Below are positions 6,153-52,885 of a stretch of DNA of 52,885 bases, piece by piece. The first letter of the stretch is position 1, and each line of letters begins with the position of its first letter. Origin of the DNA: an uncultured Pseudomonadales bacterium (GTDB lineage: Bacteria; Patescibacteriota; Microgenomatia; UBA1400; UBA1396); contig CAZRAG010000003.1 of the NCBI GenBank assembly GCA_964598125.1, positions 1-52,885 on the forward strand, given 5' to 3'. Position numbers and translations under genes: made by a program. Below the pieces are notes generated by a model. It did not search any database and was not told the origin of the DNA. It worked only from the letters and a program-made list of their open reading frames with translations.

Positions 6153-7397
<1,245 letters not shown>

Positions 7398-7453: not shown

Positions 7454-8542
7454 ATGCAACTGAGTGATTTTGATTATACCCTGCCACCTGAGAAAATTGC
7501 TCAGGTTCCGGCCGAGCCACGCGACCACAGTCGACTTCTTCGCCTAGATCGAACAGCTGAAACGATTACCCACCATCATTTTTACGACCTTCCAAAATTT
7601 CTACGTAAGGGTGATGTGCTGGTACTAAATGACACAAAAGTTCTTCCTGTTCGACTGTTTGGCAAAAAAACCACTGGTGGTAAGGTCGAGATCCTTCTCA
7701 CCAAAAAACTCTCAGGCACGGGCCAAACCGAAACTTGGGAAGCACTCACAAGGCCAGGTCTAAAAATTGGCCAAACAGTCGAAGTTCGCAACAGCCAGGC
7801 AGGTCTTGTCATTACTTGTCAGGAATTGACCGAATTCACCAGACAAGTTGCGGTTCAAGCCCAATCTGGCGATGTGCTCAATGCTCTCTATCATCTGGGA
7901 GAAATGCCGACTCCTCCCTACATCAAAAACTTTGTGGGTGACCCCAATCGTTATCAGACGATCTTTGCGAAAAATCCTGGTTCGGCGGCGGCGCCAACGG
8001 CTGGTCTTCACTTCACCCCACAACTCTTGCAAGCTCTTCGAGAGCAAGGCGTGCAAATCGCCTCAGTGACTCTCAACGTGGGTCTGGGAACATTTCTTCA
8101 TGTCACCACTCCGGATATCACTAAACACCACATGCACTCGGAGAAATTCTCCGTTTCCCCCCAAGCAGCCGAACTGGTAAACACCGCTCTTCGCGAAAAG
8201 CGCCGAATCATTGCGGTTGGTACCACTTCTTTACGTACTTTAGAGGCCAGCGCCATTGAGGACTCATCATACCCAAATGGCTGGCGACTTCATCCACAGA
8301 GCACAGAAACTGAGCTCTTTTTGTACCCACCTTATGAGTACAAAATTGTTTCCGGTCTCATCACGAATTTTCACCTGCCAAAGTCAACGCTCCTCATGCT
8401 TGTGAGTGCTCTGACCAGTTCTCCTCAAACAAGACATGAGTTTGAAACTTTTTCAACAAATATTTTAGGTAAGGCATATCAACAGGCAATTGATAACGAC
8501 TATCGATTCTTTAGCTTTGGCGATGCCATGCTCATTGAATAA
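7454..8542 (+). CDS. queA: S-adenosylmethionine:tRNA ribosyltransferase-isomerase
   Basis: FDYTLP, NDTKV, PTPPYI, YQTIFA, GSAAAPTAGLHFT, TNFHLPKSTL, YRFFSFGDAM. Start moved to ATG 7454 (TGgTATACT 7 nt upstream). Confidence 0.96.
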   Translation: MQLSDFDYTLPPEKIAQVPAEPRDHSRLLRLDRTAETITHHHFYDLPKFLRKGDVLVLNDTKVLPVRLFGKKTTGGKVEILLTKKLSGTGQTETWEALTRPGLKIGQTVEVRNSQAGLVITCQELTEFTRQVAVQAQSGDVLNALYHLGEMPTPPYIKNFVGDPNRYQTIFAKNPGSAAAPTAGLHFTPQLLQALREQGVQIASVTLNVGLGTFLHVTTPDITKHHMHSEKFSVSPQAAELVNTALREKRRIIAVGTTSLRTLEASAIEDSSYPNGWRLHPQSTETELFLYPPYEYKIVSGLITNFHLPKSTLLMLVSALTSSPQTRHEFETFSTNILGKAYQQAIDNDYRFFSFGDAMLIE

Positions 8543-12452: not shown

Positions 12453-12486
12453 GAACGCTTTGAGCTTTAACCTAACGCCATAGAGA
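12453..12486 (-). ncRNA. Repeated structured RNA motif, degenerate copy
   Basis: TCTCTATGGCG-T-TAGGT-TAAA-GCTCA-AAGCGTTC on minus strand. Confidence 0.5.
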
Positions 12487-12493
12487 GGCAGCA

Positions 12494-12554
12494 TTATCTT
12501 TGTTTCGAACGCTTCTGGCTTGGGCCAGCCCGCCGTAGTGAGAAACAAAGATAA
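12494..12554 (-). ncRNA. Repeated structured RNA motif, copy 3' of tRNA-Leu
   Basis: Perfect 13-bp outer stem (12494-12506/12542-12554) enclosing TCACTACGGCG-GG-CTGGC-CCAA-GCCAG-AAGCGTTC. Confidence 0.7.
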
Positions 12555-12560
12555 GTAGAG

Positions 12561-12646
12561 TGCCACGGGAGGGAATCGAACCCTCACTCCCGGTGAAAGG
12601 AACGGGTTTTTGAGACCCGCGCGTCTACCAATTCCGCCACCGTGGC
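12561..12646 (-). tRNA. tRNA-Leu(CAA)
   Basis: Acceptor GCCACGG/CCGTGGC, D-loop GGAATTGGTAGAC, anticodon loop CTCAAAA, long variable arm, T-loop TTCGATT; CCA not encoded. Confidence 0.97.
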
Positions 12647-34004: not shown

Positions 34005-34084
34005 AGGGCCTGGCCCTTGATTCCCAGATGGAAAAATAGTGTCGTCATAAATTCTACCTGGTGATTGATCCAGGGCCAGGCCCT
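34005..34084. promoter_or_regulatory. Pair of perfect palindromes AGGGCC-W-GGCCCT (34005-34017, 34072-34084)
   Basis: In the folA/cytidylyltransferase divergent promoter; first copy abuts the folA -10. Confidence 0.6.
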
Positions 34085-49673: not shown

Positions 49674-49814
49674 GGCTCTCCTTCATTAGATGTGCTTTTA
49701 CGTTAGCAGGAGTTACCGGGAAAATAAAGAATTAAGTTCATAGTTTCGTATAAATGGCGAATGAAAGACGTAACAAAAGTGACGAGTTCATAAAAAGGGA
49801 TGAAATATGTTTTT

Positions 49815-49848
49815 GAGCGCTTTGAGCTTTAGCTCACCGCTGTAGTGA
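49815..49848 (-). ncRNA. Repeated structured RNA motif, copy 3' of tRNA-Thr
   Basis: TCACTACAGCG-G-TGAGC-TAAA-GCTCA-AAGCGCTC. Confidence 0.7.
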
Positions 49849-49866
49849 AAAAAAGAAATTTTTTAG

Positions 49867-49938
49867 AGCCCTCGCTGGGATTTGAACCCAGGACCTCATT
49901 CTTACCAAGAATGCGCTCTACCCCTGAGCTACGAAGGC
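49867..49938 (-). tRNA. tRNA-Thr(GGT)
   Basis: Acceptor GCCTTCG/CGAGGGC, anticodon arm CATTC-TTGGTAA-GAATG, T-loop TTCAAAT; CCA not encoded. Confidence 0.97.
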
Positions 49939-52086: not shown

Positions 52087-52105
52087 ATTGAAAAAAAGGA
52101 ACATC

Positions 52106-52738
52106 ATGGCAGATCAAAACCAAAATATTCAGGCTCCCCAAGAGCAAGAAGTTGTTACTTCTAATCCAAATCACATTATTGTTACTGACATTTCTGAAGA
52201 AGAAAAGCGCAAAAAAGGTGCTAAGTGGTACGTCCTCCACACCTATGCTGGTCACGAAAACAAGGTCGCCGAGACCTTACAGCAGCGTATCGACACTATG
52301 AGTCTGGAAGGTGAAATTTTTGAATTCCTTATTCCTACCCAGGAAAAGATCCGCGTCCGTCGTGGTCAACGGGAAACCATTAAAGAAAAGATTTTCCCTG
52401 GCTACATGCTGATTCGCATGAAGGTCACGGATGCTTCTTGGCTGGCTGTTCGCACCACCCAAGGAGTAACTGGTTTTGTTGGTGTAGGTAATAAGCCCAC
52501 TCCATTACCAAAGCATGAAGTTGAAGCCATTCAGAAGTTCATGAGTCAAGGTGCTCCCAGTTACAAAGCTGATTTCACCGTTGGCGAGGCTGTCAAGATT
52601 GTGGATGGACCTTTCAACGAATTCATCGGTTCGGTGGAATCCATCGACGTCGAAAAAGGTCAAGTTACTGTTTTAGTCTCCATTTTTGGTCGTGAAACTC
52701 CGGTCGAACTCGACTTCTTGCAGGTCAGCAAATTATAA
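52106..52738 (+). CDS. nusG: Transcription antitermination factor NusG
   Basis: WYVLHTYAGHE, IFPGYM, VTGFVG, KOW GEAVKIVDGPF, SIFGRETPVEL. Confidence 0.97.
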   Translation: MADQNQNIQAPQEQEVVTSNPNHIIVTDISEEEKRKKGAKWYVLHTYAGHENKVAETLQQRIDTMSLEGEIFEFLIPTQEKIRVRRGQRETIKEKIFPGYMLIRMKVTDASWLAVRTTQGVTGFVGVGNKPTPLPKHEVEAIQKFMSQGAPSYKADFTVGEAVKIVDGPFNEFIGSVESIDVEKGQVTVLVSIFGRETPVELDFLQVSKL

Positions 52739-52749
52739 AATAACAACTT

Positions 52750-52797
52750 TTTTCCTTCACTACGGCGGTGAGCTAAAGCTCAAAGCGTTCAGGAAAA
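52750..52797 (+). ncRNA. Repeated structured RNA motif, copy 3' of nusG
   Basis: TTTTCCT-TCACTACGGCG-G-TGAGC-TAAA-GCTCA-AAGCGTTC-AGGAAAA. Confidence 0.7.
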
Positions 52798-52885
52798 GAT
52801 TGTTATTTTATAGATGTGGTACAATAATCGGACCTCAAACCTGAGGAAGCGATAACGCGACATACGCTCTGGCCAGCATTCAGCC

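Follow-up and report, generated by a model that had tools for sequence, protein, structure and literature searches.

Composite palindromic repeats behind tRNA and other genes in two species of a CPR-type genus: candidate 3'-end hairpins of transcripts

Results and Discussion

Hairpins in the window

The DNA analysed here, referred to below as the window, is a contig of 52,885 nucleotides (C3) from a genome, G000, of 999 kb in 53 contigs with 45% G+C. It contains three intact copies and one decayed half-copy of a structured repeat that we call R1. All four stretches had been picked out in a first-pass annotation and are indeed present where it placed them, on the strand of the gene upstream, which is tRNA-Leu(CAA), tRNA-Thr(GGT) or an open reading frame that we take to be nusG, a name carried over from that annotation, in which it was given from a reading of the sequence alone. 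The features of the window are as follows.

12453–12486, reverse strand: decayed half-copy of R1, with the UGAGC-type 3' half AAGCUCAAAGCGUUC kept and the 5' half of the hairpin lost
12494–12554, reverse strand: intact R1 with CUGGC-type apex, 3' of tRNA-Leu(CAA), covariance model score 69.6 bits; outer stem formed by 12494–12506 with 12542–12554 (13 bp, perfect), core 12507–12541
12560–12646, reverse strand: tRNA-Leu(CAA), CCA not encoded, identified by ARAGORN and Rfam; R1 starts a few nucleotides past its 3' end
49806–49857, reverse strand: intact R1 with UGAGC-type apex, 9 nt 3' of tRNA-Thr(GGT), covariance model score 69.6 bits; core 49815–49848
49866–49938, reverse strand: tRNA-Thr(GGT), CCA not encoded, identified by ARAGORN and Rfam
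52088–52738, forward strand: putative nusG, an ORF of 216 amino acids from the ORF map, ending 10 nt before the covariance model match
52734–52812, forward strand: intact R1 of the UGAGC type, covariance model score 73.3 bits; core 52757–52790

Read on the sense strand, the order of the parts is an outer arm, UCACUAC, RGCG, G or GG, a 5-bp hairpin with a 4-nt loop, AAG, CGYU, C and the second outer arm. The word TCACTACRGCG has 3 exact matches in the window and 4 when one mismatch is allowed, for which 0.62 would be expected. Where four copies had been counted there are three intact ones; the stretch at 12453–12486 (18.7 bits, E = 0.13), which sits 3' of the intact copy at 12494–12554, is a decayed copy, since only its 3' half remains and the hairpin is gone. 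The outer stems differ between copies, as had been described, and that of the tRNA-Leu(CAA) copy is perfect in 13 of 13 pairs; this copy folds at −28.5 kcal/mol with a z score of −3.2. The copy behind tRNA-Thr(GGT) has a weak, U/A-rich outer stem and a z score of only −0.95. Behind nusG an outer stem of ~22 bp starts within the last codons and the stop codon (TAA, 52736–52738), the 3' arm is U-rich and the fold has an energy of −29.5 kcal/mol with a z score of −5.2. An exact-protein look-up of the nusG ORF for strain variants gave no match. Past the nusG hairpin, at 52815–52825, there is a promoter-like extended −10 element, TGTGGTACAAT; the contig continues for a further 60 nt, to 52885. The gene rplK was not found by tblastn, using an approximate E. 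coli L11 sequence as query, in this assembly or in 937 kb of the sister species; it probably lies in an assembly gap.

Copy number and structure of R1

A covariance model built from eight copies found by pattern search identifies 11 intact copies of R1 in the genome, with scores of 37–73 bits. The check by covariance model that had been proposed has therefore found further copies, and the earlier family size of four was too low. Two decayed half-copies, at 12453–12486 and at C2:3993–4006, each lie just 3' of an intact CUGGC-type copy.

Each copy is a single hairpin of 75–95 nt in which a conserved apex is carried on a locus-specific outer stem. The apex, 33–35 nt long, is asymmetric: a 7-nt bulge on the 5' side, NCNCUAC, is followed by a 4-bp helix RGYR/YGYU rich in G-U pairs, then by 0–2 nt and a 5-bp hairpin closed by C-UAAA-G, and the return side consists of AAG or AGG, the second strand of the helix and one unpaired C. 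The apical stem is CUGGC/GCCAG in seven copies and UGAGC/GCUCA in four, as well as in the copy of the sister species; one G-U variant is present.

The pairing of R1 is well supported. In the model-fitted alignment 95.6% of the cells assigned to pairs are paired, compared with 74.6% in column shuffles and 24–47% when the partners are slid, and two-sided changes are seen at 10 of its 15 pairs. The covariation that had been reported for the inner hairpin (CUGGC/GCCAG versus UGAGC/GCUCA) is borne out in this same model-fitted alignment. That reported for the middle helix is mostly one-sided, from G-U to A-U or G-C, these being the main changes found in the helix, and a two-sided change occurs in only one copy. 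The full hairpins have energies of −23 to −41 kcal/mol and z scores of −2.2 to −9.2 in 10 of 11 ranges (locus L008 left out); the lone exception among the folded ranges is the weak-stemmed tRNA-Thr(GGT) copy (−0.95). We also looked to the G-U pairs for the strand on which the element acts and rejected this approach, the apex energies of −9.3 (sense) and −8.9 kcal/mol (antisense) differing negligibly and some copies folding better antisense.

Known families and distribution

As the first-pass annotation had supposed, R1 has no counterpart in Rfam: the comparison with Rfam 15 at gathering thresholds gave tRNAs only. At E ≤ 10 the only additions were generic long-hairpin models (miRNA precursors, lactis-plasmid) at 8–28 bits, against thresholds of 52–245, and the ribozyme, intron and leader models of Rfam 15 (hammerhead, twister, pistol, hatchet, HDV and group II intron included) had no match. 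Several motifs were also considered, namely group II intron domain 5, the k-turn, boxA/boxB, the 11-nt receptor and complementarity to the tRNA D-arm, and none fits both subtypes. A promoter on the antisense strand (TTGAGC-N16/17-TAGYGW, by eye) was rejected as it fits the UGAGC subtype only.

Among 60 relatives the R1 model finds a single copy, in the sister species G002 of the same genus, and none in G001 and 58 more distant relatives; relaxing the threshold to E ≤ 10 for the eight nearest genomes brought no credible addition. When 286 genomes of the order were searched, R1 was found in 1 of 138 genera and in none of 283 others. A pattern scan of 185,579 species-representative genomes and of viral contigs gave no R1 match, and the scan of metagenomes gave one chance match, without a hairpin and in apparent coding sequence. 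As the searches of the relatives, of the order and of the wider collections add none, R1 is confined, as far as visible, to two species. The family is too narrow for a general regulatory RNA, and the earlier description as a new cis-acting RNA family is not supported if a conserved regulatory RNA is meant, R1 being limited to two species of one genus. A widely conserved cis-regulatory RNA of the riboswitch or leader kind was likewise rejected, on the finding in 1 of 138 genera, the mixed contexts and the antisense orientation of 3 of the 11 copies.

The sister species and the R2 branch

In the 937 kb of G002 that were compared, the coding flanks that align with G000 are ~65–79% identical, only tRNAs being above 90%, and much of the flanking intergenic DNA does not align. 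The two species share an orthologous R1 copy at tRNA-Asp; its apex is identical bar one missing G and its arms differ yet stay paired, for example CCU/AGG versus CAU/AUG. No hairpin is found behind tRNA-Asp in G001 and four more distant relatives. There is also none in G002 behind tRNA-Leu(CAA) and tRNA-Arg(TCT), where the whole hairpin, arms included, is an indel. R1 is therefore dispensable at these Leu and Arg loci, and from all of these hairpin-less orthologous loci (Leu and Arg in G002, Asp in G001 and the four relatives) it follows that a terminator is not essential there.

A search for long palindromes with a C-UAAA-G apex brought to light four further hairpins in G000 and, in G002, an entire family. 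This family, R2, has the form CUCCU, CGACG, NNNNC-UAAA-GNNNN, AAGUCU, CGUCG, and its covariance model finds 9 copies in G002, where there are a tandem pair and a tandem triple, and 2 in G000. In the apical hairpin of R2 100% of cells are paired, with three covarying positions, and the copy behind tRNA-Ile(GAT) is orthologous in both species. Two weak matches outside the genus (G033, G035) lack the R2 architecture and were discarded. R1 and R2 correspond part by part (bulge, GGCG/GACG, hairpin, AAG(UCU), CGUU/CGUC), with a 3-nt indel between them after AAG; MAFFT could not place this indel and the two were modelled separately. R1 and R2 thus belong to a small superfamily of identically built hairpins. 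The two branches therefore predate the split of G000 and G002, each species having amplified a different one.

Sister hairpins with the same architecture and other apices lie in G000 at the following positions.

C2:57690–57736, reverse strand
C8:214–261, forward strand
C34:~7160–7230, forward strand
C5:~7750–7820, reverse strand

Three of these are directly behind tRNA-Ile(GAT), tRNA-Thr(TGT) and tRNA-Arg(CCT), and their apices include GAAGGC-UAAA-GCCUU and ACGACACC-UAAA-GGUGU. The unpaired 5' bulge of R2, CUCCUC or ACCUCAC (for example G002 C1:122258–122304 and C7:24029–24075), is similar to the end of 16S rRNA that carries the anti-Shine-Dalgarno; GAGGAG, the complement of the bulge, matches the Shine-Dalgarno (SD) sequence perfectly.

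Positions relative to genes

The association of R1 with tRNA 3' ends that had been proposed is strong: four of the 11 copies begin no more than 14 nt past a tRNA, at distances of 8–14 nt from tRNA-Leu(CAA), tRNA-Thr(GGT), tRNA-Arg(TCT) and tRNA-Asp(GTC). Two copies are at +214 of tRNA-Thr(CGT) and +156 of tRNA-Leu(TAG), in both cases directly following a displaced direct copy of the 3' end of that tRNA, with which a module of ~130 nt, here called an echo module, ends. One copy starts in the stop codon of nusG and one 12 nt after the gene of an Ig-domain protein. The other three are antisense, between co-directional genes, 13–26 nt before the starts of rnj (RNase J), rplJ (L10) and the gene of a GT4 glycosyltransferase. 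When 11 elements were placed at random in the 78 kb of non-ORF DNA, three or more behind tRNAs were never obtained in 20,000 trials. A stable hairpin stands at gene ends in 8 of the 11 copies. We considered orientation by replication as an alternative and rejected it, since location on the G-rich strand (9 of 11) and sense orientation to transcription (8 of 11) do not discriminate between the two.

Upstream of rnj in G000 and in G002, a hairpin of ~57 nt lies between the AUG of RNase J and an SD-like AAAGGAG (G000 C38:3455–3534; G002 C1:114520–114576). At exactly the same place this hairpin is R1 in G000 and an unrelated singleton in G002. It is possible that the folded hairpin would set an SD-AUG spacing of ~10 nt, making this a split ribosome-binding site.

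Outer stems, terminators and echo modules

The outer stem of R1 spans 12–29 bp and is locus-specific, its 5' arm starting at or inside the end of the upstream gene: at CGCACCA of tRNA-Arg, at CCA of tRNA-Asp and of the Thr echo, at CAC of the Leu echo, and in the last codons and stop of nusG. Gene ends under functional constraint are included in the arms of at least five copies. The outer arms mostly cannot be aligned between copies, and only the tRNA-Asp pair from the two species reached 13/18 identity; when the alignment is read by eye, the arms of the Asp and Leu(TAG)-echo copies are ~65% identical.

About 21 of the 45 tRNAs of G000 are followed by a canonical terminator, in which an A-tract, a G+C-rich stem and a U-tract make up a long perfect palindrome starting at the tRNA end. 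The 3' arm of these terminators also pairs back to the last bases of the tRNA, a feature thus common to them and R1. None of the four R1-capped tRNAs has a canonical terminator. R1 therefore occupies the terminator slot and shares its style, the canonical terminators being likewise palindromic and pairing into the tRNA end. The likeness to intrinsic terminators extends to the same position at the tRNA end, the long palindrome and the U-rich 3' arms of about 5 of the 11 copies. Intrinsic terminators, however, have a short G+C-rich stem where R1 has a conserved, internally looped apex of 33–35 nt; more than half of the R1 copies lack a U-tract, and some are upstream of start codons. As a U-rich tract in or after the 3' arm is found in only about 5 of 11, most copies are not canonical intrinsic terminators. 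The first-pass annotation had seen no U-tract on either strand, which is true of about half of the copies; others, among them those behind tRNA-Asp, the tRNA-Leu(TAG) echo, the tRNA-Thr(CGT) echo and nusG, have U-rich 3' arms. Insertion of the apex into the loop of an earlier canonical terminator was considered and finds no support, as the stem next to the apex is A/U-rich, unlike the G+C-rich apex of a terminator, and the outgroups have no hairpin behind tRNA-Asp.

Behind ~13 of the 45 tRNAs in G000 the canonical terminator is followed by a conserved module of ~100–130 nt (GTTCCGAC..CAAGTG..GAGCG..). This echo module ends in a direct copy of the last 11–19 nt of the tRNA, for example at tRNA-Trp (C2:21593–21665) and tRNA-Ser (C16:18273–18360). 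R1 or R2-like hairpins follow three echo modules, and a GAAA-looped variant follows the tRNA-Ala(TGC) echo. Echo modules and R1 both lie behind tRNAs and both have an outer strand complementary to the 3' end of the upstream gene, whereas R1 and R2 are far shorter, consist of one hairpin each and do not themselves contain a direct echo.

Interpretation

The analysis establishes how R1 is built and paired, how many copies there are, in which species and beside which genes they lie, and how they turn over. We consider R1 to be a lineage-restricted family of composite palindromic intergenic repeats that probably serve as 3'-end hairpins of transcripts, and we give this reading as a whole an even chance of being right. 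R1 would be transcribed as the trailer of tRNAs and a few mRNAs, and the RNA would fold into a very stable 3'-terminal hairpin, acting as a terminator, as a stop to 3' exonucleases, or as both. At the R1-capped tRNAs it would do the job that ordinary A-tract/hairpin/U-tract terminators do at the same place behind most of the remaining tRNA genes. New copies would probably arise by copying at the DNA level, and intrastrand template switching, an established mutational mechanism in palindromes, would keep the palindrome perfect; the compensatory changes in the stems may come partly from this switching and not from selection on the RNA.

To judge from the sequences, termination or 3'-end stability is the most plausible function of R1. 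Such a role is favoured by the fact that R1 takes the place of a terminator at tRNAs otherwise lacking one, by the several U-rich 3' arms and by the retention of two elements at orthologous tRNA loci (R1 at Asp, R2 at Ile(GAT)) despite deep divergence. Against it are the absence of a U-tract from most copies, the empty orthologous sites, the antisense copies and the folding energies, which hardly tell the two strands apart; the structure may matter on either strand, as RNA or as single-stranded DNA. The strict conservation of the apex sequence is left unexplained by a plain terminator role. Several of these points would be expected of the main rival, in which R1, as a DNA repeat of the REP/MITE kind with no RNA function, is wholly selfish or neutral and builds up in the few tolerant intergenic spots of a compact genome, for example behind tRNAs and between genes, its stems staying perfect by intrastrand template switching (quasi-palindrome correction) and not by selection on RNA. 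The expansion of different branches in the two species, the decayed copies and tandem clusters, the occurrence in both orientations, the empty orthologous sites and the near-equal stability on both strands all fit this alternative, and the genome has other palindromic repeat families and two Y1-transposase/RAYT-like genes. We nevertheless think it unlikely, while taking it seriously: two elements are retained at orthologous tRNA loci where aligned coding identity is ~65–79%, the tRNA-Asp apex is the same in both species bar one deleted base, and the copies lie exactly at gene ends far more often than chance would allow, also when only non-coding DNA is considered. Moreover, neither RAYT-like gene of G000 nor any of the four of G002 is flanked by R1 or R2, the palindromes flanking these six genes being AGGGCCTGGCCCT, AAAGTGTSACTTT and AAGGATCATCCTT.

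The apex invites a different reading, which was the leading idea of the first-pass annotation. Its unpaired nucleotides are the most conserved, it is asymmetric, and it is kept between species while the stems change, all of which would suit a sequence-specific protein-binding RNA for processing, antitermination or regulation, with CUAC, AAG and the UAAA loop as the recognition surface; the neighbours, too, are rich in information-processing genes (tRNAs, nusG, rplJ, rnj). We regard this as improbable, however, as R2 differs in the sequence of bulge and loop within the same architecture, so that no single recognition sequence is conserved across R1 and R2, and as the element is limited to two species, has antisense copies and has no candidate partner gene linked to any copy. 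We give little credence to the bolder proposal that R1 and R2 are target-templated fold-back elements, in which only the ~35-nt apex moves and the sequence just upstream is the template from which the 3' arm is made in inverted form, each insertion building a custom hairpin that would seal the gene end (the tRNA 3' end, its displaced copy or the stop codon). This would account for the locus-specific arms, with constrained gene ends in at least five copies, and for two loci where an inserted newer copy separates the gene from an older, decayed one, but between some copies the stems appear homologous and no pair of empty and filled sites is close enough in sequence for the junctions to be read. 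Were it true, R1 would be a new small mobile element providing terminators on demand in streamlined CPR genomes, and would be tied to the tRNA-end echo modules. Scarcely credible, finally, is the small self-cleaving ribozyme releasing tRNA trailers that the first-pass annotation had offered as an example, for which only the position behind tRNAs and the conserved unpaired bases speak: R1 is a linear, unbranched hairpin for which no pseudoknot partner was found, ribozyme models have no match even at E ≤ 10, and copies also occur behind protein genes and antisense. The accompanying idea of CCA-less tRNA trailers fails because CCA is encoded in two of the four directly capped tRNAs, being absent from the other two.

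Relation to known repeats

The species-specific amplification, decay, tandem clusters, occurrence in both orientations, strictly intergenic location and asymmetric imperfect palindrome make R1 similar to the REP-like structured repeats. The REP and BIME elements of enterobacteria and pseudomonads are also short imperfect palindromes with a conserved asymmetric feature, found in either orientation and often clustered, strictly intergenic and mostly at gene 3' ends, in species-specific families that expand and decay. REPs stabilise upstream mRNA and sometimes terminate transcription. R1 differs from them in having only about a dozen copies, in carrying a conserved apex on a locus-specific stem in place of a uniformly conserved palindrome, in its strong tie to tRNA 3' ends and in flanking no RAYT-like gene of either species. 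As the RAYT-like genes are flanked by other repeats, we describe R1 as working like a REP and do not call it one. The invariant CUAC that precedes the R1 helix on the sense strand is GTAG at the 3' foot on the other strand, and R2 has CUCCU; in REP/RAYT repeats a conserved GTAG tetranucleotide lies at the 5' foot.

A MITE was rejected, as no terminal inverted repeats are common to all copies and no flanking direct repeats or target-site duplication are seen. The Neisseria Correia/NEMIS repeats and DUS-bearing terminators, pneumococcal BOX/RUP and ERIC/IRU are, like R1, lineage-specific folded repeats; they are transcribed together with adjacent genes and can affect termination or the stability of the RNA. 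They are conserved over their full length and bounded by defined terminal inverted repeats, in many cases also by target-site duplications, whereas the arms of R1 are locus-specific and no target duplication is visible. R1 is of a known kind, that of structured palindromic intergenic repeats and terminator-like caps, and is very narrowly distributed. What sets it apart is its composite design, in which a conserved apex is joined to a locus-specific stem extending into the end of the gene; few described bacterial repeats are built in this way.

To our knowledge, very little is known of how transcripts end and tRNAs mature in CPR/Patescibacteria. Three kinds of cap are found here behind the tRNA genes of one genome, namely canonical bidirectional terminators, echo modules of ~130 nt and the R1/R2 composite hairpins, and between the sister species the hairpin caps have been exchanged and amplified. 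Should R1 and R2 terminate or stabilise RNA, a minimal genome would be improvising its 3'-end signals from a repeat that proliferates; should they be wholly selfish, they would add a class of repeat beside the palindromes linked to RAYT genes. CPR-type genomes are usually regarded as stripped of selfish repeats.

Other palindromic repeats in the genome

The repeat AGGGCCTGGCCCT is abundant, with at least 44 matches in the genome, mostly as inverted pairs 70–150 bp apart (REPIN-like). Its sites include the following.

Window 34006–34083
C13:4392/4527
C1:82305/82441
C15:13423–14053

There are two RAYT-like (Y1-transposase) genes in G000 and four in G002. One of the two in G000, of 144 amino acids at C15:13514–13948, is flanked by three copies of AGGGCCTGGCCCT, and, to judge from sequence, the two together look like a REP/RAYT system in a CPR-type genome. 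The second is at C30:5784–6215, on the opposite strand between tuf and rpsJ, and is flanked by AAAGTGTSACTTT palindromes, of which there are about 10 in G000; one RAYT-like gene of G002 is flanked by AAGGATCATCCTT palindromes.
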